DNA of 64,000 nt, taken from contig CALAJQ010000009.1 of the NCBI GenBank assembly GCA_937922785.1, positions 10,958 through 74,957 of the forward strand, given 5' to 3'. Below the pieces are notes generated by a model. It saw nothing but the letters and a program-made list of their open reading frames with translations. It ran no database searches and was not told where the DNA came from. How positions within the stretch are numbered: position 1 is the stretch's first letter; each line of letters begins with the position of its first letter. Shown piece by piece: positions 2,324 through 36,149 of this stretch. The translations under genes were made by a program, and so were the position numbers. This DNA comes from an uncultured Acidimicrobiales bacterium. Its GTDB lineage: Bacteria > Actinomycetota > Acidimicrobiia > Acidimicrobiales > SZUA-35.

Positions 2324-3150
2324 GGGCACTGTTGCATTAGGCGATCGTTGGGCGCGCTGATCGTGATCGCAGCCGACCTCTCGGTTAGATGGTTTCGGTG
2401 AGTTCGTCGAATGCGGCGGCAACTCGCAAGTGTTGGTGTCTGGTTTCGGTGCCGAGTTGGTAGTGGCCGCGGCGTAGGTTCTGGATGAAGGCGTGACCGC
2501 GAATCACGACTGAGGCTGTCCGATCGGTCTTGAGACCGCGCATTGGTTTGAGCCTCGATTTGAGTCGGCCATGGTCGCACTCGACACGATTATTGGCCCA
2601 CTGTCTGGGTGTTGTGGAACGCGTCGGGGATGAGTTCCTCAATGACGGTTTCGAGGGCTTGAGCGAGATCAGTGATGACTTCGTCCGGCTCACTGTGAGC
2701 ATCGAGTGCTCGGTGGAAGAACGTTCGGGCCGCTTCAAGGTTGCGGCGAGGGGAGACGAATACGTCTATGACCTGGCCGTGTTCATCAACGGCTCGGTAG
2801 ACGTAGCGCCTGACACCGGTGACTTTGACGTAGGTTTCGTCGACGAACCAGCGTCCACCAACATGGTGTCGACATGGTCGGGCAGCGCCGATGAGTAGGG
2901 GAGTGAATCGTTGGACCCATCGGTGGATGGTGACGTGTCCACTTCGATGCCACGTTCGGTGAGGAGTTCTTCAACGTCTCGGTAGGAGAGTCCGTAGCGG
3001 AGGTACCAGCGGACTGCGAGCATGATCACTTCGGGTGGGAACCTGTAGCCAGTGAACGCCGACGGTTCATCGGCAGTGGGTGATTGCGGTGCTGGCTCAT
3101 CGACACACTCTCGCCGGGGGTCGAGCCAATCCCTCAATGCAACAGTGCCC
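2324..3150. mobile_element. IS6-family insertion sequence (827 bp), decayed
   Basis: Terminal inverted repeats: GGGCACTGTTGCATT at 2324..2338 and its exact reverse complement at 3136..3150 (15/15 bp, partial identity beyond). The interior encodes an IS6-type transposase. Flanking 8-mers differ (cgatctgg versus actcaact), so there is no target-site duplication. Confidence 0.8.
2385..3070 (-). pseudogene. IS6-family transposase with at least two frameshifts
   Basis: Pieces occur in three frames. The first is FTGYRFPPEVIMLAVRWYLRYGLSYRDVEELLTERGIEVD. After a shift near 2938 comes HVTIHRWVQRFTPLLIGAA...RWFVDETYVKV... After a shift near 2600 comes QWANNRVECDHGRLKSRLKPMRGLKTDRTASVVIRGHAFIQNLRRGHY. 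The likely original ATG at 3070..3068 is itself out of frame with the first block. Confidence 0.8.
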
Positions 3151-3366
3151 ACTCAACTAGTCCGGACACTTGATGTCACATACTTCGGCCTACACGGCTT
3201 GAGGCACACTCACGCAACTCACCTGCTGGCCTCAGGCATTAACCCGAGGACCGTTAGCAAACGACTAGGCCACGCCTACGTTGCGTTCACACTCCAGGTC
3301 TACGGGCATGTGTTACCGGGCCAACAGCGAGACGCCGTCAACGCGGTCGCTCAGCTCATCGCTTGA
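3151..3366 (+). pseudogene. Tyrosine integrase, C-terminal 71-codon fragment (copy 2), truncated by the IS6 element
   Basis: Homology to copy 1 begins exactly at the IS6 right end: TQLVRTLDVTYFGLHGLRHTHATHLLASGINPRTVSKRLGHAYVAFTLQVYGHVLPGQQRDAVNAVAQLIA*. The upstream part of track ORF 3052..3366 is IS sequence read in-frame. Confidence 0.8.
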
Positions 3367-3425
3367 CCACCCTTGACGTCCGTAAATCAAAACTGGTACC
3401 GATTCCTGCAACCTAGGATCGGGTC

Positions 3426-4070
3426 ATGGCACCGTTGTTCGGCAATCAAATACGGACTGACATGACTATTGCCCGTCCTGACGAAAGCCCTTATGAGTTC
3501 TACGACCGGGTCGATGATGCGTACTTTGCCGAGTTGCGATCTGTGCTGAATCGTTGGTTCAAGCACTATCCAGCAGATGGGAAAGAGGCTCTGCGGAGTC
3601 GGATTGTCGTGGAAGAACATCACAACTCTGCTCTGTGGGAGCTGTATCTTCACGAACGTCTTTTTCAGGCCGGTTTCACAGTAGAAGTCGAAGAACAGGT
3701 CCGAAGCGGTGGTAGGCCGGATTTCAGGGTGACTCGTGACCGGCGTCTGGTGGGCTACGTCGAGGCCACTGTGGACCGGGGCACGACAGAATTGCGCAGG
3801 CAGGGTCGGGCGCGCGAACACTTTGTGTACACGCTGGAGAAGAGAATTCGGGGTCGCAGTCATGTTCTCTATTGCAACTTTGAAGCGGTCGGATTAGCGA
3901 CTCCATCGTTGAGTAAGTTCACTGCCGATCTAGAGATCATGATGAAGGCCAGTATTGGTGAACGCGTTGCCACGCGTTTCCTTAACGATGGGTGGTCCGT
4001 CACGGTTGATTTGGAACCGCTGGACTCTCCGTCACCGCAACTTCTTGTCGCTTCGAGTTGGTTCGGTTAA
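3426..4070 (+). CDS. Hypothetical protein, possibly PD-(D/E)xK-like
   Basis: 214-aa ORF with balanced composition. The segment RPDFRVTRDRRLVGYVEATV resembles a D...E.x nuclease core, but no family was recognised. Confidence 0.45.
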   Translation: MAPLFGNQIRTDMTIARPDESPYEFYDRVDDAYFAELRSVLNRWFKHYPADGKEALRSRIVVEEHHNSALWELYLHERLFQAGFTVEVEEQVRSGGRPDFRVTRDRRLVGYVEATVDRGTTELRRQGRAREHFVYTLEKRIRGRSHVLYCNFEAVGLATPSLSKFTADLEIMMKASIGERVATRFLNDGWSVTVDLEPLDSPSPQLLVASSWFG

Positions 4071-4227
4071 GCGAGCTACAGCGCAACCCGGATTCACCCG
4101 GTTCGCGACCCGTTCTTTTGGGATTGTGTCTTGTCAGACCCAGGCACCTTGGGCCGTCGGCTCCTTTGGCCCCCGCAACTAACGCCGGTCGCTTATCTCG
4201 AGCGGCACTTCGTTTCGGTCGGATCTC

Positions 4228-4593
4228 GTGCGCAGGATTGCAATATGGAGTGGGCAACTTCTTAGATTCGTGCTGGGCAAATGGCCAAAGTATGTTCTTG
4301 GTGTGACTGACATCATTGGCGAAGCAGGCGCTCAGGGCAGATTGGAGCTAGCCGGCTTAGTGGCATTGGGGCTGGTGTTGCTTGTGTTGGCCTGGGTAGT
4401 GCTCGTGAAAGGTCTCAATCTGCTTGAGAGGGTGCTCGAAGCGATTGGCCTTATCTACTGGGGGGCTCCTGTTGCGTTCCTTGGAGCGCTTGTTGGTTGG
4501 ATCATTTACGGATGGACTGAGGCTTCGGATATCTACATCGGGTCAGCAATCGGCGTTGGCGTGCTCTTCTTGATTGCTTTCATAAATGAGTAA
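4228..4593 (+). CDS. Hypothetical small membrane protein
   Basis: 121-aa ORF with 3 hydrophobic helices (LAGLVALGLVLLVLAWVVLV, APVAFLGALVGWIIYGW, IGSAIGVGVLFLIAF). The start is uncertain; GTG at 4303 is an alternative. Confidence 0.45.
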   Translation: MRRIAIWSGQLLRFVLGKWPKYVLGVTDIIGEAGAQGRLELAGLVALGLVLLVLAWVVLVKGLNLLERVLEAIGLIYWGAPVAFLGALVGWIIYGWTEASDIYIGSAIGVGVLFLIAFINE

Positions 4594-4987
4594 TTCTTCG
4601 CGATGGGAGAAGCCCGTCTTCGGAGGCTGTTCTGGGATCCGGGCGCGGCTATGTTCCGCCTTGCCACGTGATCGATCTAGTTAGCTGAATTGCTCGAGGG
4701 CCGCCAGTGGCGCCACTAATGACTGGCCAAAAACTAGTGACCACGCTGGCTCGACCATCGGTTTGGGCGCGTGACCGCCCAAACTGCGAGGTTGACGGGG
4801 CTTGCTAGAAACAGCGGCGTTCAGTCGGCACCAAGACGCACAAATCCACGGACAAGGTAGACAGCTTGTCGCAATGACTTGGCTGTATATCCGTTGAGAA
4901 CGGAACTGTTGTGACCACCATGTGACCATGAGCCTCGGCTCGGCTCCACCGTCCGCCGCTTGTAAGCCGCTGAACTGGAGTTATGTA

Positions 4988-5030
4988 GTACACCCCCCGG
5001 GACTTGAACCCGGAACCTGCGGATTAAGAG
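4988..5030. repeat. Distal att repeat: a 43-bp copy of the tRNA-Lys 3' half
   Basis: gtacaccccccgggacttgaacccggaacctgcggattaagag is identical to 36076..36118. It covers the tRNA from the anticodon loop to the first C of CCA. Flanks diverge immediately on both sides. Confidence 0.9.
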
Positions 5031-5449
5031 GCCGACGTTTTCTGTCCGAGTGGTCCGGTGCAATCCGACAAGCAGCGGTTTTGTCCAGCGGTGTGCCCAG
5101 CCAGTCCGGCTGGGTCTGGTGGAGTCCGGTGAGTTTGGCACCCACTTAGGCACCCGTTTGTCAGTTCGGATTGTTGCTTTCGGGGCAAAGAATGAGTTGT
5201 AGTTGCCCTTGGCTGGTGGTCTCGACGGCGTCGTCAATGTCGGGTTGATTTTGGAGGTGCGTGATTTGGTCTGCCGCGTTAGTCGAGATCTTATTGAAGG
5301 TGGTGGTGGGAGCGGACGGTGCTCGTTGCCGGCGCTCTGGACGATGTTGTACATGGGCCTAACTAAATGGCTCGACATCCACCAACGGGTTTTTTTGCTC
5401 ATCTAGGTTGCTGGATGTCATTCCAAGATCCCGATCCTTTTGGAGATTC

Positions 5450-8400
5450 ATGTCAGCGCCTGCTCATCTTTTGAAGCGCCTGTTCTTTCTGCCGTTTTTG
5501 GCTATCGCTCTGTTGGTTTCGGTGGTTGCTTCGGCTCCGCCAGCGTTGGCTCAGGCTGATCCGTTGGATGGTTTTGTTGAGGGTGATGACGTGGCCTTCA
5601 CCGAGGTTGATGAGGTTGTTGATGTTGATGTGATGGACAACGATTTCGATGATGATGACGACTTGGACATGCCGGCCGCGACGATGGAGATCATCGACCC
5701 GTCTGTTGATGGTGAAGCGGAGATGGTGTTCACCGATGATGAGCCGACTGCGCGGTTTGTTCCGAACGCGGGTTTTGAGGGTTTGACGAAGTTCCGTTAT
5801 CGGGTTTGTTTTGGTGGTAACTGTTTCACTTTCTGGGTTTGGATCTTCGTTGGGAACTCTCGTTGCACGATTACCGGAACTAACGGTGACGATGTGCTTG
5901 TTGGCACTGCTGGCAGGGACGTCATTTGTGGTCGTGGGGGAGCGGACACCATTGACGGCAAGGGCGGCAACGACATCATCCTCGGTGGTAAAGGAGCCGA
6001 TGTCATTAGTGGTGGTGGCGGTAACGACCGGGTCTGGGGCGGTAAGGGTGCGGACACGATCGAAGGTAACGGCGGAAACGACCGGCTGCGGGGTGGTAGG
6101 GGAGCCGATGTCATCAAGGGTGGAAACGGGAACGACCGCATTTTCGGTGGTCGCGGTGTCGATGATCTCAAAGGTAACTCTGGTGATGATCTGCTTGTGG
6201 GCCGTCAAGGATCCGATGTGCTTCATGGCGGCGATGACAACGACACCATCCGGGGTGGACGCGATGCCGATCAGATCCATGGTGGTAAAGGTGCCGATGA
6301 CATTTCGGGCGGTCGTGGGGCCGATCTGATTGATGCCGGCAACGGGTCTGACACTGTTAGGGCCGGTCGCGGTCAGGACCTGGTTTGGGGTGGTAACGGG
6401 GCCGACGATATTCGGGGTAACCGCGGCGCCGATGTGCTGTTCGGTGGCGCCGGTAACGACACCGTCAGTGGCGGTAACGGGTCCGATAAATGTTCGGGCG
6501 AGACGTTAACTAATTGTGAGGCCGAGCTCGCAGCCGAGGATCCATCGGTCACGATCGCTACTCCGGCTGACGGTGCAACTGTTGATCCGGCTGGTTTCAC
6601 AATCGAACTCGCGGTTGAACCTGCCGGTCCTCCGGTCGAGGTCTTCATTGACGGAGACGCAGTTGGTGTAGCTGAGGCTCCTGATTACACGCTGACTGTG
6701 ATTGGTGCCGGTCTGGCGGCTGGTTCGCATCTGATCACGGTGGAGACATTCTTTGGTTCGGCTGAGTCTGAGATTGTTGTCGGTACGCCTGCGATCGCGA
6801 TCGCGACGCCTGCTGAGGGTGACCCGGTTGATGCGACAGGTTTCGATGTTGCTGTTCTTGGCGGCGACGGAACACCGGTTGATGTCTCGATAGATGGCAC
6901 TCCTGTAGGTCAGGCCGTTGCCCCGGATTACGTTCTTGCGCTCACTGGTCTGACGCTGACCGAGGGAGTCCACGTAATTACCGCTACTGACGGTGTGACC
7001 ACCGCATCCACAAATGTTGTTGTGCCAACGCTCACGCTTGTCTCGCCTGTCGTCGGCGACGAAGTCGGGACAGACGGCTTCGACGTGGCCGTTACTCTCG
7101 ATCCGCCAGCGGGTCCGGTCGCGATCTCGGTTGACGGCGTTCCGATTGATGAAGCGACCGCTCCGGACTACACGGCAACACTCTCGGGTTTGGACCTGGC
7201 AGTTGGTGACCACACTGTTGAAGTCTCAGCGTTCGGCATAACCCGAACCGTCACAGTAACGGTGCCTGCGGATCCTGTGCTCGAAATTATCGCACCCGTG
7301 CCTGGGCCTGTGGCTAACGGCGACAGCCTTGACGTTCAGCTGACTGTGATACCGCAAGGTGACCCGATCGACATAAGTATTGACGGGGTTGTTGTCGGCC
7401 AGGCGCTGGCGCCTGACTACACCGCCACTCTGACTGGTCTTGGCCTTACGGCTGGGGATCACACTCTAAGTGTCGCCGGAAACGGTCTGACGGCTGAGGT
7501 AGTCATCACGGTCCCTGTGGTTTCTAACCTCGCCATTGTTTCTCCTGCTCCTGATGAGGTGGTCAGTGCCGACGAAATTACGATTGTCACCGCTGGTGCA
7601 GCGGGTGATCCAGTTGAGGTCTCGATAGATGGCGTTGTGGTGGGCTCGGCCTCAGCACCCACTTACTCTTTGACGCTCACTGGTTTGGCTCTCGTGGCTG
7701 GTGGGCACACGATTTCTGCCTCTGATCCGGCCGGGGGCGAAGCGACGGTCGATGTGATTGTGCCGACTCTGTCTCTGGTGTCCCCGATCGCTGGCGCTTT
7801 GTTGAATGTGGACTCGGTGGAAGTTGTGGCATCGCTCTCTCCAGCCGCTGGCCCGGTCGACGTGTTGGTGGACGGCGAAATCTTGGGCACGGCAACAGCT
7901 CCGGACTACACGGTCACCTTGACCAACATCGTCACCGGTGGTGGTACCCACACGATCTCGGTTGAAGCCTATGGCCTCACCGATTCAGCTGAAGTTTCGT
8001 TCCCAACCCTTGCCATCATCCAGCCCGCAACTGGGACTCTCGTAGACAAGGCAAACGTTTCGGTCGCTCTCGATGTGGCACCGGCGACGTCGGTAGCCTT
8101 AACAATCGATGGTGTTTCAGTCGGCAGCGCGACTGCCCCAGATTTCACAGTGAATCTGAACACCACACTTAACGCCGGCGAACACTCCCTTACTGCAACG
8201 GCGAACGGCGAGACACGGTCAGTCACGTTCATCGTCGGTGAAGACGGGGACGGATCAGACCCTCCGGCACCGGTCGTAATCACGGATCTGCCGCCGGTCA
8301 TGGAAGAGGTACCTGACGGCTTCTTTGACCCAGATGACATCAACGCAGGACCAGGAGCCGACCTGTCGGACCGGAGCGACGCCACACCCGTGCCCCTCAT

Positions 8401-11400
8401 TCCGCTCGATGACTTCGTGCCCCTGGGTGATGGCGTCGACGTTGCCACAATCAACCCGGACGGCGGTGCAGAACCATTGGCTGCAACGACGGTCACCGAG
8501 GAAGTCACAGCCAACATCGTGGACTTGGCAGGCGTTCCAGCGACCATTGAAGTTCCCGTTGAGGCTGTCGGTGTTGGCGGGCAGCTCACGTTGGTGACTC
8601 TGGACCCGGCGGTCACTCGTAACCTGACCCGTACTGGGTTTGCGTTCGATCTGATTGCGAGCGGGTTCGGAAACGACAACCCTGCGGTCGACGCTGTACC
8701 AGTCGGCTTACCAGCAGCTGGCGAAGAGGTTGACGAAGTCGAACTGGGGCTGGGTACGCCATGGATCATTCGTATCCCTGTGGATGAGGTGCCGACTTCT
8801 ACTGATGATCAGCGTGAACGTCTAGAGATAACACTCCATCTTGGTTGCGACGCTGCAGGCCTTTGCCGCACCAGCGAAGACCTGGACACTACATACGACG
8901 CTGAAGCTGGGGTCATCGAGGCGGCTATCCCGGTTGGTCTTCTTGAGGGAATCGGCGGACCGCTCCAGGCCGCTGACCCTCAGTTAGTTGCTGATGGTTT
9001 GGTCGCGGGTCATGCGACTGCTGGTGGTTCTGGAACGAACATGTCGGTCTCTACCGGAAGCGGGGGAGCAGCCGGCGACTATTCGGCAACCGAGATCGGA
9101 TTGCTAACCGAATGGCAGGTCGGCATCCACACCGGTGAAGCAACCACCTCTTACCCAATCAACGCCCCCGCTGCGCCCGGCCCGGTGCCAAGCGTCAGCC
9201 TTTCCTACTCATCGGGCTCGGTTGATGGAATCACTGACGAGAAGAACTCACAGGTTTCAGAAGTTGGTGCTGGCTGGAACATGCCTAACCCAGCTATTAC
9301 CAGGCTTACCGACCTTTGCAACCGGCGTGATGAACCGTCCTACCGAGACAGTCTCTGCCTGCCCGCGGGACAAGATGACGGGTTCAGCATCTCTATGGCT
9401 GGAGTGTCGGGTCGTCTAGTTCTCAAGGAAGTCGATGCCAACGAAGACCCAATCGTTCGGCCCCACCCGTTTGTCGCCGACGCCACCTACATCGAATACG
9501 AAACTGAGACTAAGAACACTGCCCGCATCTGGAAGGTCACCGCGAATGCTGATCATTCGTTGTATGGGAACGGCGGAGCGGTGTTGGAATGGTGGGAAGT
9601 AACCACAGGCGACGGCACGCTCAATGTGTTTGGACGTAACGCAACCTTCACACCTGATAATCCGGGCGAGACAAGCCACTTCGCACCGCGAACCGCGCCG
9701 GAAAGCGTTCCCCTACAGTCGACGAGGGTTGTTCCTACCTACTTAGCTGACACAAGCAAAGCGGACACAAACCTTTGCGACGCCAACCTATGTGCCACCG
9801 TTATTTCATGGCATCTGGACAACGTGATTGACGCGACCGGGAACCTCCAAATTCGTGCCTACCGGCGCGGCCTCAACCATTACAAGGCTTATGTCGGCGG
9901 ACGCTACGAAATCAAGGAATACACCCGGTCAGTGAGCCCAGCGATCATTGATTACGGGCAACGCTACGGACAGCTACCAAACCCATATGAGCCAACCCCT
10001 GATGTCTTCCGTGTCCGCTTCGACTACGCCTACCGCAACGCTGCGAATAACGGTGACGCTCCAGACGCCGACTTCATCGATACACCAACCGATCTCCTTT
10101 GCACAGCAACCAAATGCTCGGAGAAGACGCCAGCGTTCTTCAACAACATACGGCTGCACGTCATCTCAACTTGGGCTGGAACAGCTAGAGGCACCCAGAC
10201 CGTTCTACGTCACAGTTGGCCAGAGGCACCGGGAACCAGGAAGAACGCCGAGAAGATGTTCCTTGAGAACATCCAGCTTCAAGAAGGCGCAGCAGCAACA
10301 AACGCGATCGACGATGCGCTCCCGATGATCACTTACGTTCCAGAGTTCCTCCAGAACGTAGTGAACGCTCCCGGCTCGATGTCGCCGATGAACATGCCCC
10401 GAATCGGAACGATCGAGACCGAACTCGGCGGCGCCATCAAGTTCACCTACGGCCAACCCAGGACTACCTCGTTGACGACCGTCGGTGGGCAGCTTGAATA
10501 CTGTGGAGGCGCAACGTCGTCTGCTGCCAACCCAGCTAAGCCTGCGGTTCGGGTCGCCTGCTACATGTTCCCTAACGGCGGAGCTCGTTGGTTTAACAAA
10601 TACGTTGTGACCGAAACCGAAACTGACGCCGACGGAGACTTCAATCCCGCAAACACCCCAGCTTGGAACAAGTCAGCAAACGAACTAGTCACATACGACT
10701 ACCTGACCGAGCCAGACTGGGCTTGGGCCTCCAGCTACGAAGACCAAGAAGTCACCGACTGCTCGTTCTGCCCGTGGTCTTCATATCGTGGCCACCGCCA
10801 GGTCAGAGTCACAGATGCTGCCGGCAACATCACCGATCACTACACCTACACCGGTATGGCCGAAGACCCTTGGACTACTACCGGCAGCACCCAAACGCTG
10901 TTTGAACGCCTCGGCCTAGGACATCCCACTGTTGGGATCCCGATGCCAGTAGGCACGCAGGCCCCGCTCTACAACACCGTCGAGTCCCAAGGCCAAACAG
11001 CCGCTGTGCTGAGGTACGCGGCCGAAGGCGATCAGCGGCTACGTGACGCCTCGATCAACCGGTATGACTACGAAATCTTGTCGACAGAGTGGCCGACATC
11101 ATCGAGAATGCTGAGCTCTAGCTCTACGGTCATCGGTTTCGCCCCAGGGTTCGCAACCTCAAAGTGGACAACTGAAAGCCTGACGTCCTACGACACCTTA
11201 GGCCGAAGCATCCAAACCGTCGAAACCGGCGACAACGTCGCGGGCCGCCGCAACCACACCGTCTACACCGATGACGGCGTCGATCCGGTTGATCAGTCAA
11301 CTGATGACGTCCCGTACTTCCGTGACCTGGTTGCCCGGAGTGTTCAATCAGATGCTGGCGCTGTGACAGTTCCAGATAGCGACGACGTCGCAGCGTTGGA

Positions 11401-14400
11401 TGTAACACAGATCTACTACGACAACTTGACGCTCGGGGCACCGCCGACAGTCGGTCTTGCAACAAAGTTTGAGGACCGTCTCAACATCACCAACCTAGAC
11501 GCGGTGTTCAACGAGACGACGTCGTCTTATGACGAACGAGGTCTAGTGCTAGCCGTGGACAACGGCGACAACGGCGTCACCTCCAGCACATATGACCCCT
11601 CCTTCGGATTCTTGACGTCGACAAACGGGCCGATCGTTCCAGAGCCCGGAGACCCAGACGACGAGACCTTCTATCTCCAGGTCAAACCTGAGCTTGGTTT
11701 CGTAGGCCGGATAGACGCACCAAACGGCCAGACAACCCTCCTCACATCAGACGGACTCGGCCGAACTCAAACTGTCAAGTTGCCTGGCGCTCCGAAGGAT
11801 TCATACAAGTTCACCTACGACCTGGCACCGGGATCGGGTCCTCTCAAGGTCCGGACCGACGTTCTACGCGAGCCGGACGCGACCGCTTATGAGTACACGT
11901 CGTCCTGGTCGTTCATGGACGGGTTCGCCCGCACTATTCAGTCACAGTCCCAAACCCAGAAAGGCGGCTTCTTCAAAGCAGTATCGATGAACTATGACAA
12001 CGCCGGCCGCTCCTTCCGCCAAACAGTGCCAACCATTATCACTGGCATCGGCGGACTCTATTCCGACATGAACTTCGCACAACTAGCAGGCAGCCGAACA
12101 ACCTATGACACCGCAGGCACCACAACTTTGGAGTCAATGAACTCTGCCAATGCTGCGGTCAACACCGCTAGGACTCAGGCGAAGGGGCTCTACACAGTTT
12201 CAACGGACCGGCTGAACCGGAACACGACAGAGACTTATGACGTGCGAGGGAACATGGTGTCGGCCGAAGACGCTGAGGGCAACGTTGTCGATTACACCTA
12301 TGACCTGCGGGACCGTTTGCTGACAATCACCGACGCCGTCGTGACGACCGAGGAGGAGAGGAACGTTATTAGGAACGTGTATGACACCGACTCGGTTAAG
12401 CAGTCGGATTCACCCTTGAAGATGATCGATCCTGACTTGGGTGAGATTGTCTACACCTATGACACAGAGAACCGTATGGAATCTAAGACCGATGCGTTGA
12501 ACTCATTGGTCACCACCTATGACGAGGCGTCAAGACCAGTCAACATCAAGTTGAGCACTGGTCAGATGGTTTCTGAGTGGACTTATGACGGGCAAGACCG
12601 GGTTGGTTTGCTGACTTCGAGTACGCATCACAACTTGAGACCAGGACCGGTGTCGGGAGGTGAGGTCATCAAGACCTATTTCTATGACAGTCGCTTACGG
12701 CCGACGTTCACTAATTGGCGTGTTCAACTGGCTGACGGCTCTGTCTTCCAGGAAGGCGTCGAGCGCTCCTATCGGGAATCAGGCCAGCTCAAATCGATTG
12801 CGCATGGAAACGAGGCCAGCACGGCCTTGGCAGCCGATGAGCGGGACGTTGGGCCGTCGAACGTTGGTAGTGACTACATCACAACCTCGTTCTCTTACGG
12901 ACCTGATGAGAAGCCTTTGTCGATTGAGTCTGGAACCCAGTTCACAGCTCCAAGCTCCGTTGCTTCTGGGGCTTCGTATAACGCTCGGGGGCAGTTGACG
13001 TTCTTGAACCGGGTTGGGCAGACGGTTGATGCTGATCCGGCTTCTGGCGGTCTGGCGTCTACCTATAGCTATGAGGATTGGTCTGGCCGGTTGTTGTCGG
13101 CTGACACATTTGCGGGTGTGCTACCTGAGCCTGATCCGGATCCTTTAAACACTGAGTTGGTGCACTTGTATCGAGGTTTGTTGCTGCGTGACGAGGTGCC
13201 TTCAAATGCTGGGTATCAGTTCTGGGAGGGCCAGTTGGCTACCAACACGATTGAGACGATTGCTGGCGAGTTCATGTTGCAGCTTGAGTGGACGAACACT
13301 GAGACTGCGAAGCCTTCGCTGAACCCGGACACGACGGGGACCTTTGATGTGACCAGTAACGCAGGGTTTGTTAATTGGCTAGAAGATTCGGTGTTCTTGG
13401 GTTCCATCCCGGCCGGTGAAACCAAAGCAGCCTGGGTGACCGCACTGAATGCAAACAAGAACCCGTTGGGTGCTGACCCGAACTTTGTCTACCCGAATCA
13501 GAATCGTGCGAGGGGTGCGCTAGCGCAGGATGCGATCGAGTTGGCCGTGGGGAACTCGGCTATTCATTATGTGTCTCCTGAACCTCAAGACCCAGATCGG
13601 GACGCTAACGCCGATCTGATCCGCACTTTGGCTTATGACTGGGACGCGGTGGGGAACTTGGATCAGATTCATGAGTTTGATGGCGACACTTTGTCCCAGT
13701 TCCAGTGTTTCTCCTATGACGTGTTGGATCGTCTAACAGAAGGTTTCACGACCGCCAGTGCTGATTGTGAGACCGCTAGCCCCGATGCGACAGGTCCTGG
13801 TCCGTTTGATGTGGCCTACACCTATGACCCCATTGGTAATATCACTTCCGCTCGGGGTGTCAGCACTGTTGGTACGGCGACAACACCGGCTAGCTACACC
13901 TATGACGTTGACAAAGTCCACGCGGTGATCGGGGCTGGCGGTAACAACTATGGTTATGACGCTGTTGGTAACCAGACGTCTCGTAACACTGGTTCTGGTA
14001 TTGAGACGCTTGGCTACGACGTACAGAACCGGCTAGTCACGATTAGCGGTGCCGGTGCGGATATGGAGGCGTTGTATGACGCCGAAGGCAACCGGGTCTA
14101 TAGGAACCTTGACGGCGTTGAGACGTTCTACTTCGGCAGTGATTATCAGGTCTCTGATGGAGTGTCGGAGGTTACTTACAGTCTTGGTGGTCAGACTGTC
14201 GGTCATCTGATTGGCGCTGTGTTCACGGCTGCTTCTAGTGATCACTTAGGATCAGGGTCTGTGACGTTGACTGCAGATGCGGAACCGGTCGTTCAGCGCT
14301 ACACACCGTTTGGTGTCATCCGTGGCGGCGGTATCAATGGGCTGCCGGTTGATGAAACATTCACCGGACAAACCGATGACCCAGGCACAGGCCTTATCGA

Positions 14401-15208
14401 CTACAACGCACGCCACTACGACCCACAAATCGGCCGGTTCATCATGGCCGACGAGGTGCTGGATGGCTACAACCGGTATTCATATGTTGATAGCAACCCA
14501 TTGAAGTTTGCGGATCCAACCGGCAATGAGTCCTGTTATGTGCCAGGCGCTTCAATGGGGTGTGCCGAGAAGGCAGACATGAAGCCGCCAGGGCCAAGCT
14601 GGTATGAAAGCGTTGCCATCTCTTGGTATGAGACGGTCGAGGATTTCAAAGCCGACAACCCCAACTTCAGTCAAAAGACGGCAGACGGCGCAGCTGGCTT
14701 CTTTGACGGGTTCTTCGCACTGTTGGGAGAAGAAGCTGTGCTGAGCAACCTGAGTTTGACCGAGGGCAAGTACGATCCCGACAGTTGGACTTATCGTGGC
14801 GGCCAGGTCGGTGGAACAGTCGCTATGACCGCCATGACTGGAGGCGTAGGTAACACCCTGTCGGCTTCACGAGCGATCGCTAACGGATCTACCAGGGTAA
14901 GCGCAGCAGCTATTCAAAGCAGCCGGGTCGGAATCGGAAGCGCGAACCTTGGCAATTCGGCCGCAACGCTCTCGTCAAAACCTGGGCTGTGGAACCAGCC
15001 TGGGCGCTTTATCAAAGTCGGCTGGAGCGGCGCCACGACACGATTGCGGGCCGGGGAACAGTGGACTACCGCAATTCGCATTGGAATTGGTCGAAGTAGG
15101 AACCCAAACCAGGCACTGATTCACTTGAACGTTCCCTTTACGCATGTTTCTCAGAAGTCAGGCCAGCTAGCAGATAGACTGATCCGTAGCCTTCAGTCCC
15201 TCCGGTAG
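5450..15208 (+). CDS. Giant secreted RHS-repeat polymorphic toxin (TcB/TcC-like) with N-terminal adhesin-type modules
   Basis: One open frame runs 5408..15208. The likely start is ATG 5450 ([36 protein letters not shown], a signal peptide). Modules in order: a cadherin-like [13 protein letters not shown] segment; about 20 GGxGxD RTX nonapeptides (5878..6492); 7 Ig-like repeats of about 81 aa (6542..8239); an SpvB-like segment ([31 protein letters not shown]...GAGWNM); many YD repeats ([28 protein letters not shown] ...); the RHS core ([43 protein letters not shown]); and a 225-aa unique tail. Confidence 0.95.
   Translation: [3252 protein letters not shown]
5878..6492 (+). repeat. Coding tandem repeat: RTX/haemolysin-type Ca-binding nonapeptides
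   Basis: Runs such as [56 protein letters not shown]. Confidence 0.85.
6542..8239 (+). repeat. Coding tandem repeat: 7 diverged Ig-like units of about 243 nt
   Basis: Each unit follows the pattern P(T/S)L.(L/I)(V/I)(S/Q)P..G.......(F/V).V........P(V/I)(D/E)(V/I)S(I/V)DG..(V/I)G.A.APDYT.TLTGL.L..G.HT(I/L).V. Confidence 0.85.
14531..15205 (+). other. C-terminal toxin tip of the RHS protein (family not recognised)
   Basis: This is the sequence after the DPTGNE junction (Asp codon at 14513). It has a Gly/Ala/Ser-rich middle ([30 protein letters not shown]...) and a basic C-terminus ([47 protein letters not shown]). No nuclease, deaminase or ART motif was seen. Confidence 0.6.
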
Positions 15209-15210
15209 CC

Positions 15211-15678
15211 ATGAAAACTCCCTTCGTTGAAACGGTTTTAGCCAGGATGGATGCAGTGCTCGCTAGCTTGGGTCAACCGCCGGTCCTGAGCAACCCCTTG
15301 TTCCTCCGAGAGGATCGCCTGATTGGGCAATACGTGTTTGAGTTTGTCAAGCCTGGTGCAGTTCCTTTCCGTCTTGAACTGCTCGAGCCTAGCTTGTTAG
15401 TGTCGTTCGGCCCTGCAGGTACTCCACCGATCGAGTACTTCTCTCTAGATGCGGTTGAACATGAGGTTCACGGGTTCCCGCCGCTGTTCGAAAAATTGAT
15501 GACCGCCGACATTACCGTACGGACACTGCTTTTTGGTCGCTTTCGGCGTGTCTATGTCGATAATGAGCTTCTGCTGACAAGCGTTGGAGTGTCGCGATGG
15601 CCTAGCAGGCGAAGTCACATCGCAACGGGTTGGACTAAAGCCGGGTTCAGACCAGCATTTAACGCAAGGATTGAGTGA
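15211..15678 (+). CDS. Putative cognate immunity protein for the RHS tip
   Basis: 155-aa ORF whose ATG lies 3 nt after the RHS stop on the same strand. It is cytoplasmic-looking with no recognisable domain. The call rests on position only. Confidence 0.55.
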   Translation: MKTPFVETVLARMDAVLASLGQPPVLSNPLFLREDRLIGQYVFEFVKPGAVPFRLELLEPSLLVSFGPAGTPPIEYFSLDAVEHEVHGFPPLFEKLMTADITVRTLLFGRFRRVYVDNELLLTSVGVSRWPSRRSHIATGWTKAGFRPAFNARIE

Positions 15679-16000
15679 CCGTGGGAGTGAACAGCCTCCA
15701 ACGATCTGCGATCGCTTCGTCGGCGGTTTGCCAAGTTCCTATGATTCGTCCTTCGCCGTGATCCTCGGTTAGATCGAACGCACCGGACTCGTGGACCGGC
15801 GTCGACGCTGTTGCGAAGACTTCGTGAAGCGAAGCTCTAATAGTTCCTTCTGATGGGTACGCAGAGATCCAGCGAATCAAGACTCTTTGGTCTGGGAGGA
15901 CATGGCGACCGAGTAGCTGTTCCACTGGTCGGCCCCGATTAAGAGCCGCCGCTGCTTGTTCGAACGAGAGGTGTCGCATTGGTTCTTCGAACAGAACCAC
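15659..16000 (-). CDS. Hypothetical protein
   Basis: 113-aa ORF with ordinary composition, convergent with the immunity candidate (20-nt overlap). No motif recognised. Confidence 0.3.
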   Translation of the reverse strand: MVLFEEPMRHLSFEQAAAALNRGRPVEQLLGRHVLPDQRVLIRWISAYPSEGTIRASLHEVFATASTPVHESGAFDLTEDHGEGRIIGTWQTADEAIADRWRLFTPTVTQSLR

Positions 16001-16040
16001 TGCGTGCAGCGCAACCCCTACCGATCCGTACGGTTCAGCG

Positions 16041-17360
16041 GTGATAGCGAACGGCGCCGCCCTCTACATGCCGCTAACTGGTCTGAACGGGGACGGAACC
16101 CCAGCCCGTATCCAAGATGAACTAGCGAACTGCCTGAACGGTTCCGCGACCAGCAGCGCAACCGCATCCGCTGACGGGCCCACCGGCATTGGGGGTGGCA
16201 TAACTTCGGCTTCAGATCAACTTGCAGTGTTGGCAGCATCCGGGAATCTGCCGACCGGTAACGATTCGCGGTCGTTGGAGACTTGGTTTAAACAAGATGG
16301 CGATGACGGTGTCCAGTCGTTGATGCGTTATGGAAACAACTTCGGTATCGCCTATGACGACAACGGTTCTTTCGTTGTCTCAACAGGCCTCAACACAACC
16401 GATTTGCACCGCTTCAACTTGCCTGTGGGTCAGTCAATCACTGACGGTGTTTGGCATCACATCGTCGTAACGTTCGATGGCGCGTCCGTGAGAGTCCATT
16501 TGGATGGTTTCTTAGTTGGCTCCGAGCTGCTTGACGTTTCAGTTGATACGAGTCTTGCTGGTGGGGGCCTCCGAGTCGGGGAGCACGCTGGCAGCTATTC
16601 AGGCTTCGCTGTCTACCCGGCGGTGTTGACTGATTCGGAGATTGCCGAACATTGGACGCTTGGAGCGTCGAGCCGGACCGACGCATGCTCAGACGCACCC
16701 ACCGATCCATACGGAGCGGCGGTCATCGCCGATGGTGCCGATCTCTACATGCCGCTAGCCGGCCTGAACGGGGACGGAACCCCAGCCAGGGTTCAGGATG
16801 ACTTCGCGAACTGCTTGAACGGTTCGGCCACCAGCAACGCAACCGCAGCAACCGACAGCCCGGCAGGTCTCGGAGGAGCCCTCACAGCACCAACGAACGA
16901 GCTCGCTGCTTTGGCTTCGTCAGGTAATCTCCCGATCGGAGACGCAGAACGGTCACTGGAGACATGGTTTAAGACTGACGCTACCGACGGTGATCAGTGG
17001 CTGATGCGCTATGGAAACAACTTCGGTTTCTATCACGATGACAACGGATCGTTGGTTGTTGTGACAGGGCTCAACACCAACGATCGCCACCGATTCTTCC
17101 TACCCGCAGGCCTGTCGGTTACCGACGATGTGTGGCACCATATCGTGTTGACGTTCGATGGAGCCACAGTCAGGATCTACCTGGATGCCCAGCTAGTCGG
17201 CTTTGAGTTGCTTGACGTGTTCGTTGATACCAGTCTGGACCAAGGTGGCCTCCAAATCGGAGACCACGTCGGCAGCTACTCAGGTGTCGCCGTCTATCCA
17301 ACCGCACTAACGCAACAACAAATCACTGATCACCTCACCGTAGGCAACACGATCGGCTAA
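16041..17360 (+). CDS. Tandem LamG/concanavalin-A-like lectin domain protein, probably a 5'-truncated fragment
   Basis: Two repeats of about 220 aa, each with LYMPL.GLNGDGTPAR.QD..ANCLNGSATS...SLETWFK.D..DG.Q.LMRYGNNFG...DDNGS.VV.TGLNT.D.HRF.LP.G.S.TD.VWHHIV.TFDGA.VR..LD..LVG.ELLDV.VDTSL..GGL..G.H.GSYSG.AVYP..LT. There is no signal peptide. Linker homology (ACS.(A)PTDPYG.AVIA.G) continues upstream of the GTG start, to about 15999. Confidence 0.65.
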   Translation: MIANGAALYMPLTGLNGDGTPARIQDELANCLNGSATSSATASADGPTGIGGGITSASDQLAVLAASGNLPTGNDSRSLETWFKQDGDDGVQSLMRYGNNFGIAYDDNGSFVVSTGLNTTDLHRFNLPVGQSITDGVWHHIVVTFDGASVRVHLDGFLVGSELLDVSVDTSLAGGGLRVGEHAGSYSGFAVYPAVLTDSEIAEHWTLGASSRTDACSDAPTDPYGAAVIADGADLYMPLAGLNGDGTPARVQDDFANCLNGSATSNATAATDSPAGLGGALTAPTNELAALASSGNLPIGDAERSLETWFKTDATDGDQWLMRYGNNFGFYHDDNGSLVVVTGLNTNDRHRFFLPAGLSVTDDVWHHIVLTFDGATVRIYLDAQLVGFELLDVFVDTSLDQGGLQIGDHVGSYSGVAVYPTALTQQQITDHLTVGNTIG

Positions 17361-17399
17361 ACAGCGTTGGCTTCGGTAAACGAGTGGAAGCCAAGGCGC

Positions 17400-17950
17400 C
17401 ATTGCAATAAGGATCTGTGGCCTCATTATGAGGTTTGAGAGTACCTTGGCGTCGGTCGCGACAGTTTGGCTCCAGGTGGTTCACCCGACCCTTCACCTCA
17501 AAATTGAAGCTGTCACTCGTCAGCACAGGCTGGCCTACATGTACAGGATATTGCCCCCTACGGTGAGTACTGGCCGAAATTTCCTGGGCGGCCTGAAGTC
17601 TAGGAGGACGTTCCGGGGACACAGCTTTGCGATCCCGGGTCGTTTGGATTATCGCCCCTGCGTAGGCCCACAGATATTGGCTACCTGACTCAGCAGATGC
17701 CGGTTGCCGACGATACCTGGGATGTGTGCTTCGCATGCGCTGGGCTGGTGGTTTCGGGGTTGCCGCCCTTTCTGAGTGGCGACTTGGCAAACCCTGGGTC
17801 ATCAGCGGACTCGGTTCTGAAGTAGTCGGGCGGGGGAGTGCTCGGGTGATAGCAGCGAACACGGTTCGATGCCGTTGTAGTAACTCGGGACGATTGTCTT
17901 GGCGGCGCAGAGCGATGATCTCAAGGTCGATGATGCTTGGCTGGTAGCGC
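17400..17950 (-). pseudogene. Possible degraded IS481/IS3-type integrase-transposase N-terminal remnant
   Basis: Minus-strand reading IIDLEIIALRRQDNRPELLQRHRTVFAAITRALPRP... and later ISASTHRR resemble the ENxxLRxQLxVLRRxxxRPxLxxxDRxxxAALxRxLP ... xSxSTVxRIL pattern of these transposases. Frames are broken and similarity is weak. Confidence 0.3.
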
Positions 17951-18115
17951 CTCAGGGTCGGCTAGGAACGCCCAATCTCATGATTGCTGAGAAAGGAACG
18001 GATGAACTCGACCGTTCGCGTTTCTCAACTTGGGATTGTGCTCGAGTTTCTGATCGCGGACAGTACGCAAAGAACGTTTCCTAAAGCAGATCGACTAACC
18101 CGCCGATGCCCAGGC

Positions 18116-34419: not shown

Positions 34420-36138
34420 ATGAGCAGTCGAAATCGCGCAGTTATCTATCTCCGAGTTTCGACTAAGCAGCAGGTGATGACCGGCATGAGTGATGATGGT
34501 CTGTCGATTAGCGCTCAAGAAGATATCTGTCGAGCGAAAGCCGAACAGCTGGGTGCCGATGTCGTAGGGATCTATAAAGACAAAGGTGAGACTGCAAGGA
34601 AGCGAGCAGGTCGAGACGAGCTTGCCCGCATGTTCGCCGATATCGAGACTGACAACGTTGACTTCGTGATCGTGTACAAGCTCGACCGATTTGCTCGCAA
34701 CACACAAGACGACTCCAAGATGTCGGACGAGATTGCAGCAACGGGCGCACGCCTCATATCGGTCAGCGAGGACTTCGACGATTCAACACCACAAGGCTGG
34801 TTCACACACCGGATGTTCGCTGTCTTCGCTGAGTTCGAATCCAAACAAAGCGGCCAACGAATCTCTATGGGGATGGCGCAGAAAGCCAAACTTGGAGGCA
34901 CGACACACATTCCTCCCGCTGGCTACCTCAATGCACGAGATCGTCCGAGCGGCAGCGGTGCACGAGGAATAGCCAAAATTATTGTCGATGAGGAGCGGGC
35001 ACCGCACGTTCGTTGGGCGTTCGATGCGTATGCAACAGGCGAGTGGTCGATCCGTAGCCTTACCGAAGAGTTGGAGCAGCGAGGGCTTCGATCCCGACCG
35101 AGTCGCAAGTCGTTGCCGACACCGCTGCGAATCGGGCAAGTTCAGAAGATGCTCCGGGACCGGTACTACATCGGGTACGTCAAGTTCAAGGACGAAGAAT
35201 ATCCCGGCACGCACCCGAAGCTGATCGATGTCAACGTCTTCATGCAAGTTCAAGACTTACTTACAGCTCGGCGTAAGTCGAGTACGAGGTACCGGACTCA
35301 CGATCCGTATCTCAAGGGATCAATCTTCTGCAAAAAATGTGAAGGCCGCTTCTACTTTCGACGCACAACCAATCGACACGGCACGGCCTACGAATACTTC
35401 ATTTGCAGAGGCCGCAACAACGACAGGTCGTGTGCTACTCCTCACCTCTCAGTTGAAGAGGTTGAAGCAAAGGTCGAAGATGAGTACCGCACGGTTTGGC
35501 TAGATGCTGAGAAAACTGCTCGCCTTCGCTCTGTACTTCGAGCGGCCGTAGAGAAACATGACGGAGAACGAGAAGCTGTCGGTGCAGCGCAAGAGCTGCG
35601 CCTCAAGAGGTTACTCAACGAAGAGAAGAAGAACGCTGCCGCATACCACGCCGATGCGATGAGTTTGGAAGTGCTGCGAGAAGAGAAGAATCGAATATCA
35701 GGTGAACGCTTAGATGCAAAGGCTGTGATCGAGCGATCAGCAATTCGATACGCCGAAATCGAAGATGTTGTGTTGCAAGCGCTCGACCTGGCTGACAACT
35801 GGCAGCGGACCTACCTAAGCGCTACTCCCAAGGTTAGACGGGCGCTGAACCAGGTGTTCTTCAAGCGAATCCTTCTCGATGAGAGTGGCGATGCGGAGCG
35901 CGAACTAACTGATCAATATAAAGCACTCATTGATCTTGACGATGCTGTCGATCAAGCCGAACGGGCAAGCATGGCGTCGACTAAGTCATTCAATCGCACG
36001 CCTATCGACGTGGTCTGGAACGAAAAGAACCCCGAGTCTGCTATTGCAGCACGGGGTTCTCATAAGATTTCTCTGGTACACCCCCCGGGACTTGAACCCG
36101 GAACCTGCGGATTAAGAGTCCGTTGCTCTGCCAATTGA
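34420..36138 (+). CDS. Large serine recombinase
   Basis: Resolvase catalytic domain (RAVIYLRVSTKQQ...YKLDRFARN), a recombinase domain, a Zn-ribbon (CKKCEGRFYF...YEYFICRGRNNDRSC) and a coiled-coil. The ATG immediately follows the ImmA stop. The last 20 codons (VHPPGLEPGTCGLRVRCSAN) are antisense tRNA-Lys/att sequence. Confidence 0.9.
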   Translation: MSSRNRAVIYLRVSTKQQVMTGMSDDGLSISAQEDICRAKAEQLGADVVGIYKDKGETARKRAGRDELARMFADIETDNVDFVIVYKLDRFARNTQDDSKMSDEIAATGARLISVSEDFDDSTPQGWFTHRMFAVFAEFESKQSGQRISMGMAQKAKLGGTTHIPPAGYLNARDRPSGSGARGIAKIIVDEERAPHVRWAFDAYATGEWSIRSLTEELEQRGLRSRPSRKSLPTPLRIGQVQKMLRDRYYIGYVKFKDEEYPGTHPKLIDVNVFMQVQDLLTARRKSSTRYRTHDPYLKGSIFCKKCEGRFYFRRTTNRHGTAYEYFICRGRNNDRSCATPHLSVEEVEAKVEDEYRTVWLDAEKTARLRSVLRAAVEKHDGEREAVGAAQELRLKRLLNEEKKNAAAYHADAMSLEVLREEKNRISGERLDAKAVIERSAIRYAEIEDVVLQALDLADNWQRTYLSATPKVRRALNQVFFKRILLDESGDAERELTDQYKALIDLDDAVDQAERASMASTKSFNRTPIDVVWNEKNPESAIAARGSHKISLVHPPGLEPGTCGLRVRCSAN

Positions 36139-36149
36139 GCTAGAGGTGC
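36074..36149 (-). tRNA. tRNA-Lys (anticodon CTT), CCA encoded
   Basis: Minus strand: GCACCTC-TA-GCTC-AATTGGCA-GAGC-A-ACGGA-CTCTTAA-TCCGC-AGGTT-CCGGG-TTCAAGT-CCCGG-GGGGTGT-A-CCA. The cloverleaf folds with G:U pairs in the acceptor stem and one A:C at 27:43. Confidence 0.9.
36076..36118. repeat. Proximal att repeat (within tRNA-Lys)
   Basis: 43/43 identical to 4988..5030. Confidence 0.9.

Follow-up and report, generated by a model that had tools for sequence, protein, structure and literature searches.

An intact single-chain polymorphic Rhs toxin gene with a predicted adhesin-type stalk at the edge of a tRNA-Lys mobilisable element

A 64-kb window, the whole stretch of DNA under study, was found to contain an intact gene whose product is a polymorphic Rhs toxin made as one chain and belonging to the TcdB/TcaC-type class ('signal peptide, SpvB, RHS'). 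The new features are an N-terminal stalk of about 1,000 aa, a helical segment inserted into the shell and an orphan C-terminal tip; the polymorphic Rhs toxin class and the occurrence of RTX blocks behind Sec signals in other Actinomycetota were already known. The gene extends this well-established class and does not overturn it. Taken as a whole, the explanation of the gene as encoding a Sec-exported, stalked Rhs toxin with an anti-bacterial role, accompanied by an immunity ORF and carried as mobile cargo, is considered probable. The features are listed in Table 1.

Table 1. Features of the Rhs toxin gene, its product and its surroundings (positions are those of the window; aa, residues of the toxin)
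Feature	Position	Strand	Basis
Left attachment repeat (copy of the 3' part of tRNA-Lys)	4978..5034	.	57-nt direct repeat
Rhs toxin gene	5450-15208	+	3,252 codons, uninterrupted
Predicted Sec-type signal peptide, aa 1-35	5450..5554	+	Sequence reading; predicted cleavage between ALA and QA
Acidic Big_9 bacterial Ig / cadherin-like module VDVDVMDNDFDDDDD, 26% Asp+Glu	5555..5869	+	Pfam Big_9
RTX beta-roll block, then Cys-x7-Cys cap	5870..6496	+	HemolysinCabind, 153 bits
Seven tandem Big_7 Ig-like domains, aa ~360-930	6527..8239	+	Big_7, 115.5 bits, seven stretches
Acidic proline-rich linker, aa 931-1010	8240..8479	+	25% Asp+Glu
Beta-rich domain with conserved Cys pair, aa 1011-1195	8480..9034	+	Alignment with relatives; model pLDDT ~86
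SpvB / TcB-like cocoon half, aa 1196-2140	9035..11869	+	SpvB match and AF2 model
TcC-like RHS/YD shell ending in Rhs core	11870..14527	+	RHS_repeat, YD_repeat_2x, Rhs_assc_core
Helical insertion in shell, ~160 aa, aa 2558-2720, DUF4214-like	13121..13609	+	Alignment gaps and model
Variable C-terminal tip, aa 3027-3252 plus stop codon, presumed toxin	14528..15208	+	Divergence from paralogue after DPxGN
155-aa ORF, candidate immunity protein	15211..15678	+	ATG 2 nt past toxin stop (ORF list)
Right attachment repeat 36066-36122, in tRNA-Lys 36074-36149	36066..36149	-	57-nt direct repeat

The ORF list contained a single forward-strand frame open from 5408 to 15208, which was free of stop codons on translation, and this confirmed the one uninterrupted gene of the preliminary description. 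The ATG start codon is preceded by GGAG at a distance of 5 nt. An open frame of 3,252 codons in DNA of 56% G+C cannot have arisen by chance. The HMM parsing and AlphaFold modelling of sub-regions that had been suggested as a check were carried out, and all of the architectural claims could be verified.

Assessment of the N-terminal region by sequence reading bore out the expected Sec signal peptide, in which KR is followed by a 17-residue hydrophobic core and the predicted cleavage site; neither a lipobox nor a twin arginine could be read within aa 1-35. The acidic domain that had been described as cadherin-like is present, but another label suits it better: Big_9 scored 30.1 bits (Pfam cut-off 23.6) while Cadherin_5 remained sub-threshold at this module (15.5 bits against a cut-off of 26.5), and the domain is better called a bacterial Ig module. 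The RTX block, put at about 20 repeats earlier, spans aa 141-347 and consists of 23 nonapeptides that keep a 9-aa register without a break; 19 of them follow the strict pattern xxGxxGxDx, and identity among the DNA copies is 61-73%; a partial match to NCBIfam RTX_toxin was also obtained. The seven Ig-like repeats reported previously correspond to the seven Big_7 stretches, which have a period of 79-83 aa and pairwise identities of 28-46%. No family was found for the linker, and Pfam scans together with sequence reading revealed no LPXTG, SLH or LysM wall anchor in the toxin protein.

The RTX block does lie behind a Sec signal in an apparent monoderm, as had been pointed out, but the view that this is remarkable in itself was overstated, as other Actinomycetota do likewise: in Nocardioides speluncae and one Actinomycetota MAG a signal peptide is followed directly by long GGxGxD arrays. 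A contig search with aa 1-1240 as the query returned generic RTX proteins only. Tandem GGxGxD nonapeptides are also common to the type I-secreted RTX proteins such as HlyA and the serralysins. Unlike in those proteins, the block is N-terminal within the 3,252 residues, with a Sec signal before it and 2,900 residues after it; moreover, the C-terminus is the Rhs tip, so that a C-terminal secretion signal is absent. No ABC transporter or membrane-fusion (MFP) gene was found among the scanned ORFs of the window.

Downstream of the stalk, the beta-rich domain with the Cys pair (aa 1011-1195) aligned with the N-terminal regions of relatives P0001-P0005 and of representative matches, in which it is placed shortly after the signal peptide. 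One of the two cysteines is at least 90% conserved in alignment A2, and both occur in the consensus lines of alignments A1, A2 and A3. No Pfam family matched this region. A ZU5 autopeptidase, a domain linked to SpvB-RHS toxins (PMC3482391), was also considered for it; this assignment was unsupported, as there was no Pfam match and conservation is seen for a Cys pair instead of the CxH motif.

The cocoon follows in two halves. The N-terminal half contains a match to SpvB (PF03534) at aa 1228-1399, with 25.1 bits against a cut-off of 22. The AF2 model of aa 1000-2140 had a pLDDT of 80.6 and a pTM of 0.80, with loops of low confidence at aa ~1617-1821, and its best PDB fold matches were YenB (5kis_A; E 1.2e-28) and TcdB2-TccC3 (4o9x; E 5.7e-25). 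This model reached a TMq of 0.45 against YenB/TcdB2, and the SpvB N-domain 6p0x_A gave a TMt of 0.61. The families TcdB_toxin_midN and midC, which represent the mid-region propeller by which TcB docks TcA, did not match within aa 1230-2140 up to E 1.

The C-terminal half could be recognised by RHS_repeat (44 bits) and YD_repeat_2x (34.8 bits), and it ends in an Rhs_assc_core domain (TIGR03696; 63.7 bits against a cut-off of 32.5) at aa 2951-3025 (14300-14524), the final sequence of which is NPLKFADPTGN with the DPTGN boundary. The SpvB-like segment, the YD shell and the RHS core of the preliminary description were each verified in this way by an HMM match. In the model of aa 2100-3252 the shell had a pLDDT above 90 and matched Rhs, TcC and teneurin shells. 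The closest superpositions of the model were with TccC3 and with YenC2 and TccC2, which are free-standing TcC subunits (TMq 0.51 for TccC3, TMt 0.69 for YenC2, rmsd 6-7 Å), and PDB sequence matches of the shell were RhsP, SGS1 and RhsA. The fold comparison of the AlphaFold models places both halves closest to TcB and TcC, in line with the cocoon type proposed earlier, and shows a TcB-like and a TcC-like half naturally fused into one cocoon. Both aspartates of the predicted autoprotease are kept in the Rhs core, Asp3001 and Asp3022 (D902 and D923 of alignment A3), the columns of which are at least 90% conserved in 45 aligned relatives.

The shell carries an insertion for which six helices were predicted with a pLDDT of 38-69. 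Over most of its length only 3-11% of the 44 other aligned relatives have residues in this region (25% in one 20-residue block), and the whole insertion is common to P0011 and P0013 only among these 44. DUF4214 was tried for the insertion and rejected, with a score below the cut-off (E 0.019, 15.5 bits).

The tip of 226 aa had no match in Pfam, NCBIfam or the PDB, and none in a word-indexed search of 5.8 billion proteins; its AF2 model had a pLDDT below 35. A Gly/Ala-rich, mildly hydrophobic stretch could be recognised in it. The ORF that follows is called as a gene in two assemblies, with lengths of 155 aa and 140 aa. It had no family in Pfam, NCBIfam or PADLOC, and is regarded, from its position alone, as a candidate immunity gene. 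A pore-forming tip was also considered from the Gly-rich stretch; the putative immunity protein has neither a hydrophobic window nor a predicted membrane segment.

A paralogue of 3,241 aa (P0011), with the same Pfam architecture and 64% identity overall, is apparently present on the same 301-kb contig as the toxin gene, which is P0161 on the 301,248-bp NCBI/ENA contig. Its N-terminus is the same in the region of the signal peptide. Identity between the two proteins is 98% at aa 1-100, 92-98% over the first 400 residues and 60-80% through most of the cocoon. It is still 69% at aa 2901-3000, but at aa 3101-3200, where 44 positions are gapped, it has fallen to 20%, and at the end 9 of 52 residues are identical. 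The claim of a variable tip was upheld by this comparison, in which the paralogue is unrelated past DP(T/S)GN; its own tip had no family either. The sequence after DPTGN is a swappable tip, because P0011 keeps the core yet is unrelated beyond this boundary.

The wider family is made up of SpvB/RHS proteins from actinobacteria, about 1,900-2,300 aa long and each with a signal peptide, and their homology covers aa 1010-3025 at 25-39% identity. The stalk (Big_9, RTX and Big_7) is shared by the paralogue only, among the best 150 of 1,017 relatives. The nearest relatives, P0012 and P0013, have no stalk at all, and a metagenome search yielded three short relatives, all without it. Near-identity over the first 400 residues, with diverged cocoons behind them, would fit a recent recombination or gene conversion of the stalk onto two cocoon genes. 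Since identity falls from 92-98% to 60-80% and P0012 and P0013 lack the stalk, it is possible, though doubtful, that the stalk is a second exchangeable cassette and that these toxins are polymorphic at both ends, with N-terminal targeting or tethering and a C-terminal toxin. In a stronger form of this proposal the stalk would perform the receptor binding that TcA performs in Tc toxins, and the protein, if so, would serve a monoderm as a delivery particle that is exported by Sec, consists of one chain and needs no partner.

The combination of signal peptide, SpvB, RHS and a C-terminal toxin is that of the published TcdB/TcaC-type polymorphic toxin class (Zhang et al. 2012, PMC3482391). With members of this class, such as the ~1,900-aa 'SpvB/TcaC N-terminal domain-containing' RHS proteins of Cellulomonas, Streptomyces and Actinokineospora, the present protein has the base plan in common: signal peptide, Cys-pair N-domain, SpvB, RHS shell, Rhs core and variable tip. 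It differs from them in the extra ~1,000 aa (Big_9, 23 RTX units and seven Big_7 domains) between the signal peptide and the N-domain, in the 160-aa helical shell insertion and in the orphan tip.

The best structural match of both halves is the Tc BC subcomplex (YenB-YenC2, 4igl/5kis; TcdB2-TccC3, 4o9x), which likewise has an SpvB domain, an RHS cocoon, an aspartyl autoprotease and a C-terminal toxin enclosed within. Unlike the Tc BC subcomplex, the protein is a single chain with a Sec signal and an added adhesin stalk in a monoderm, its cocoon is about 500 aa shorter (our own estimate from published subunit sizes), and the propeller families were not detected. Besides the toxin gene, the window contains no ORF above 1,044 aa and the element none above 738 aa, so that no candidate for a TcA partner was found in either. 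The delivery step has no known template, because the TcB propeller families are unmatched and no TcA-sized gene lies in the window.

Teneurins have EGF, NHL propeller and lectin domains and a membrane anchor. Together with the bacterial teneurin-like protein 9ifo and mosquito SGS1 (8fjp), they gave significant fold matches and likewise combine a YD/Rhs shell with added extracellular binding modules. Pfam revealed no type II membrane anchor, EGF repeats or NHL propeller before the YD shell of the present protein, and its N-terminus is a predicted cleavable signal peptide. Its decorating modules differ from those of teneurins, it has no membrane anchor, and the putative autoprotease and swappable tip that it keeps argue for a toxin. 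WapA of Bacillus subtilis is also a Sec-exported Rhs toxin of a monoderm in which an RHS shell is combined with a polymorphic C-terminal toxin, and its immunity gene lies next to it, as does the candidate here; WapA has wall-binding repeats and is not known to have an SpvB/TcB-like half, an RTX block or a Big_7 array.

The most likely role of the protein is antagonism against neighbouring bacteria. In the proposed mechanism, Sec would export the protein unfolded across the single membrane of the Acidimicrobiia host, and extracellular calcium would then cause the RTX block to fold. The RTX and Ig domains may together make a rigid stalk, by which the capsule would be tethered to the surface of the producer itself or of its target. 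The aspartyl protease would cut off the tip, which would be held in the cocoon until delivery, and the producer would be shielded by the product of the ORF that begins 2 nt downstream, a small cytosolic protein. A toxin directed against a eukaryotic host or grazer appears unlikely. Such a toxin would be a Tc-like or teneurin/SGS1-like capsule, its stalk would bind a eukaryotic surface, and the downstream ORF would not encode immunity. Insecticidal Tc BC subunits do head the structural matches, with teneurins and mosquito SGS1 next, host adhesins typically contain Ig and RTX modules, and the Gly/Ala-rich stretch of the tip could act on membranes. However, TcA-sized genes in the window and TcB propeller families are both missing from this picture, and a small abutting ORF together with a tip-swapped paralogue is the signature of inter-bacterial polymorphic toxins (PMC3482391). 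A non-toxic function at the surface or in the matrix, with a structural or adhesive Rhs shell, as in teneurins, and a C-terminal segment devoid of toxicity, is quite improbable. Half of the first 1,000 residues consists of adhesin-type domains and no recognisable toxin family occurs in the tip, as would suit such a function; nevertheless, the protein retains the DPxGN boundary together with the two aspartates of the autoprotease, and a structural tail would hardly be expected to be replaced wholesale between paralogues that keep the core.

An assembly artefact, in which two or more genes were joined through collapsed repeats or mis-joined paralogues, is barely credible as the origin of the long frame. 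Short-read (Logan) contigs end at ~5015 and ~10840 and neither spans the stalk-cocoon junction, and the same assembly holds the paralogue with a near-identical 5' end, so that part of the 5' sequence could have been swapped. The break at ~5015 is nevertheless accounted for by the att repeat at that position, window positions 10840-25678 are 100% identical to an independent contig, and an exchange between the two paralogues would leave the architecture unchanged. The stalk-to-cocoon junction is found in both diverged copies, with 59-67% identity over aa 901-1200. A chimeric or collapsed assembly had been named as the case that would undo the earlier account, and it was unsupported on inspection: judged from the sequence, a false fusion is very unlikely, because the repeats within the gene are only 60-73% identical at the DNA level, never above 73%, and the paralogue keeps the same architecture.

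Rhs and Tc capsules have been studied and engineered as protein-delivery containers. To our knowledge, targeting by capsules without a TcA syringe or a type VI system is poorly understood, especially in Gram-positives. In the present gene, nature has fused a stalk of calcium-binding and Ig modules directly to a TcB/TcC-type capsule within one chain, and its two diverged copies can be used for comparison. Neither of two very large protein collections contains a relative of the tip, which may therefore represent a new fold or activity.

The two attachment repeats, of 57 nt and 91% identical, equal the 3' part of tRNA-Lys and enclose 31.1 kb. The left repeat lies 416 nt upstream of the toxin gene, which is the first gene inside the element and, with 9.76 kb, makes up 31% of it, in agreement with the earlier figure of about a third. 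The mobility genes in this context are a serine recombinase, a type IV coupling protein, a relaxase and ArdA. The 31-kb element is an integrative mobilisable element at tRNA-Lys with the toxin gene as cargo at its edge, a position that points to transfer of such weapons among uncultured Acidimicrobiia. The actinobacterial host presumed earlier is supported by FtsH and by an LCP wall-glycopolymer transferase in the flank. All organism-named matches of FtsH (64-72% identity) were MAGs of Acidimicrobiales, Acidimicrobiia, Actinomycetia or Actinomycetota, which supports a probable Acidimicrobiia-like host.

The ORF list contained one frame on the plus strand that was open from 5408 to 15208, and translation of the toxin gene from the ATG at 5450, with GGAG located 5 nt upstream, was free of internal stops and gave a product of 3,252 residues. 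The single uninterrupted gene of the preliminary description was thus confirmed, with exactly the claimed length. Domain analysis revealed a stalk (Big_9, RTX and seven Big_7 domains) joined to a cocoon with an SpvB/TcB-like half and a TcC-like RHS half. The Sec signal peptide, the approximately 20 RTX repeats, the seven Ig-like repeats, the SpvB-like segment and the RHS shell and core described earlier could all be recovered. The module termed cadherin-like was an acidic Ig-type domain, for which Big_9 is the better name, the sole cadherin match (Cadherin_5) being sub-threshold.

Features of the toxin, its gene, the integrated element and the flanks (aa, toxin residues; other positions in nt of the window)
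Feature	Position	Strand	Remarks
Sec signal	aa 1-35		KR, 17-residue hydrophobic core, ALA|QA; no lipobox, no twin arginine
Acidic Big_9 bacterial Ig domain	aa 36-140		30.1 bits (cut-off 23.6)
RTX block	aa 141-347		23 nonapeptides in unbroken register, 19/23 strict; HemolysinCabind 153 bits
Seven Big_7 domains	aa ~360-930		pairwise identity 28-46%
Acidic proline-rich linker	aa 931-1010
Beta-rich domain with conserved Cys pair	aa 1011-1195		shortly after the signal peptide in relatives
SpvB/TcB-like region	aa 1196-2140		SpvB 25.1 bits
RHS shell, ending in Rhs-associated core	aa 2141-3026		TIGR03696 63.7 bits (cut-off 32.5)
Shell insertion	aa 2558-2720		~160 aa, helical
Tip	aa 3027-3252
Phage-integrase fragment	934-1350
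Trypsin_2 protein	1446-2183	-
IS240-type DDE transposase fragment	2388-2738	-
PD-T7-5-like protein	3426-4070
Direct repeats (57 nt)	4978-5034; 36066-36122		91% identical
Tandem duplication (42 nt)	11201-11282		2 copies, 75% identical, in frame
Immunity-like ORF (155 aa)	15211-15678	+
LamG protein gene	16041-17360	+	two LamG (Laminin_G_3) domains
Lipoprotein-type protein gene	17984-18811	+	signal …LSVSAC…
CBASS / AbiGi-like / HAD_SAK_2 region	21466-22967; 23235-23870; 20240-21052	-; +; -
Type IV coupling protein	29367-31583
Replic_Relax relaxase	31708-32535
ArdA anti-restriction	32573-33175
IrrE/M78 regulator	33472-34419
Large serine recombinase	34420-36138		element right end
tRNA-Lys	36074-36149	-
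Three-tRNA cluster	36074-37359		Lys-CTT and His-GTG minus, Arg-TCT plus

The helical insertion interrupting the RHS shell was common, among the aligned relatives, only to P0011 (a second giant protein of 3,241 aa) and P0013, and its likeness to DUF4214 was sub-threshold (E 0.019). The tip was rich in Gly, Ala and Ser and basic compared with the remaining protein; Pfam, NCBIfam, PDB and large protein database searches revealed no relatives of it. The 42-nt tandem duplication lies inside the TcB-like region and was assigned no significance.

Each cocoon half was modelled with AlphaFold from an alignment of 45 relatives. The aa 1000-2140 model (mean pLDDT 80.6, pTM 0.80) best matched Tc B subunits in the PDB, namely YenB 5kis_A (E 1.2e-28), 4igl_A and TcdB2-TccC3 4o9x (E 5.7e-25), with a query-normalized TM-score of ~0.45, followed by type VI Rhs proteins and teneurins. 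In the aa 2100-3252 model, pLDDT of the shell was mostly >90, and the best superpositions were obtained with the TccC3 part of 4o9x/6suq (query-normalized TM-score 0.51, rmsd ~6 A) and with YenC2 and TccC2, which are C subunits that stand alone (target-normalized TM-score 0.69). The autoprotease aspartates were D3001 and D3022, both columns being conserved in at least 90% of aligned relatives. The TcB/TcC-like cocoon proposed earlier is therefore supported by the fold comparison of both halves.

A word-indexed search with aa 1010-2140 revealed five relatives only, among them proteins of ~1,900 aa from actinobacteria that are named 'SpvB/TcaC N-terminal domain-containing' or RHS, whereas HMMER, run exhaustively against 1.84 billion representatives, revealed 1,017. 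The top HMMER match was P0011, aligned from its residue 1005 on, with the same Pfam architecture as the toxin (HemolysinCabind 163 bits, Big_7, SpvB, DUF6443, RHS). Among the best 150 of the 1,017 relatives, P0011 aside, the homologous region started far closer to the N-terminus than ~1,000 residues, mostly within 100-400. RTX and Big_7 were absent from P0012, P0015, P0016 and P0036 in a Pfam scan at default threshold and from P0024 and P0025 in a Pfam scan; one metagenomic relative likewise lacked the stalk, its signal peptide leading through a low-complexity stretch to the N-domain. The same sample contained a third relative, P0001 (1,278 aa; 318-kb contig, L002 10001-15489), which carried a signal peptide of its own and lacked the stalk. 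Since it ended early and its RHS part continued in another frame, it is either a pseudogene with a frameshift or the product of a sequencing error. P0001 also lacked most of the shell insertion. In the distant relative P0024/P0160 (Actinomycetes MAG), LamG and PKD domains were fused after the RHS region.

An exact look-up placed the window protein in public collections (P0161) on a 301,248-bp NCBI/ENA contig. The contig that carries P0011 is of identical length, with the P0011 sequence outside the window, and the simplest reading is that the two are paralogues on one contig. In 100-residue windows, their identity was 98% over aa 1-100, 92% over aa 301-400, about 60-80% over aa 700-1900, 26-70% over the remaining cocoon (aa 1901-2900) and 69% over aa 2901-3000, with none past DP(T/S)GN; the tips thus differ within the same architecture. 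The gradient from 98% to 60% suggests that the stalk itself may be an exchangeable cassette.

A false fusion by assembly error was weighed as the origin of this architecture. Retrieved short-read Logan contigs covered 10840-25678 at 100% identity and the left flank to ~5015, leaving 5015-10840 uncovered; the break at ~5015 is the position of the att repeat, and for the break at 10840, k-mers common to the toxin gene and its paralogue are a plausible cause. Compared as DNA, the RTX units shared 61-73% mutual identity, marking them as old repeats, and no long DNA repeat family could be found in the Ig array. Because the internal DNA repeats are old, repeat collapse or chimerism is an unrealistic origin of the open frame, and retention of the same junction in two diverged giant copies argues strongly against false fusion.

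Polymorphic toxins of the TcdB/TcaC type (signal peptide, SpvB, RHS) are a published class reported in actinobacteria (PMC3482391), and their base plan is the same as that of the toxin. Tc BC components are the closest structural relatives of the cocoon, but unlike canonical Tc BC the toxin had no Pfam match to the TcB propeller families TcdB_toxin_midN/midC even at E up to 1, and no TcA-sized gene was present in the 64-kb window. For the decorated YD shell, the closest analogues were teneurins, the bacterial teneurin-like protein and mosquito SGS1. With an N-terminal RTX block and no C-terminal secretion signal, the toxin does not belong to the type I RTX toxins. Component parts and class are already known; the novelty lies in the joining of this stalk to a cocoon, in the insertion within the shell and in the orphan tip, of which no description could be found in the literature searched.

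The observation was thus confirmed and its interpretation supported, except for the overstated surprise at an RTX block preceded by a Sec signal in a monoderm host. Several proteins at RTX loci drawn from reference genomes had a clear signal peptide directly followed by long GGxGxD arrays, including two adjacent proteins of Nocardioides speluncae and, in an Actinomycetota MAG, one of 1,297 aa. The unusual feature is the RTX block plus seven Ig domains ahead of an SpvB/Rhs cocoon.

The export signal, calcium-binding and Ig modules, two-part cocoon fold, conserved protease residues, swappable tip and abutting small ORF, which has no membrane segment, were established. The chain would be exported unfolded via Sec, and the RTX beta-roll would fold outside the cell, driven by calcium, as is established for RTX blocks generally. 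The stalk may be rod-like and tether the capsule to a surface, the tip would be freed autoproteolytically inside the capsule, and the downstream candidate immunity protein would protect the producer; tip exit from the capsule and target entry have no template here. Inter-bacterial antagonism is favoured as the probable role, since a swapped tip together with an immunity-like ORF is the hallmark of polymorphic toxin systems (PMC3482391); a toxin directed at eukaryotes is less probable.

The direct repeats, which correspond to the 3' part of tRNA-Lys, bound a 31.1-kb element. The toxin gene is the first gene inside its left end and accounts for 31% of it, in agreement with the one-third previously estimated. 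At the right end, 29367-36138 forms the transfer and integration module, and the 3' end of the recombinase ORF overlaps the tRNA-Lys gene by ~65 nt. No full mating-pore gene set was seen, and the element therefore looks mobilisable rather than self-transmissible. Its middle carries a CBASS pair (oligonucleotide cyclase, E 8e-83; 2TM effector, E 2.5e-35) near AbiGi-like and HAD_SAK_2 genes. The LamG protein gene begins 360 nt past the immunity-like ORF, contains an internal DNA repeat of 300 nt (72% identical) and as read encodes no signal peptide; the small lipoprotein-type protein faintly matched the corynebacterial WKL lipoprotein family (E 0.004).

Genes for an LCP glycopolymer transferase and for FtsH lie in the chromosomal flanks. 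All FtsH matches carrying an organism name (64-72% identity) were Acidimicrobiales, Acidimicrobiia, Actinomycetia or Actinomycetota MAGs, consistent with the actinobacterial host assumed earlier, which is Acidimicrobiia-like, uncultured and presumably monoderm. The tRNA-Lys locus may act as a hotspot of tandem insertion. The three-tRNA cluster borders the element on its outer side. On the left side of the att repeat (1-4978), the four features mapped between 934 and 4070 are remnants of older mobile DNA, and further left, outside the window, locus L062 carries DarT accompanied by a Macro-domain protein, together with an ApeA-HEPN gene.
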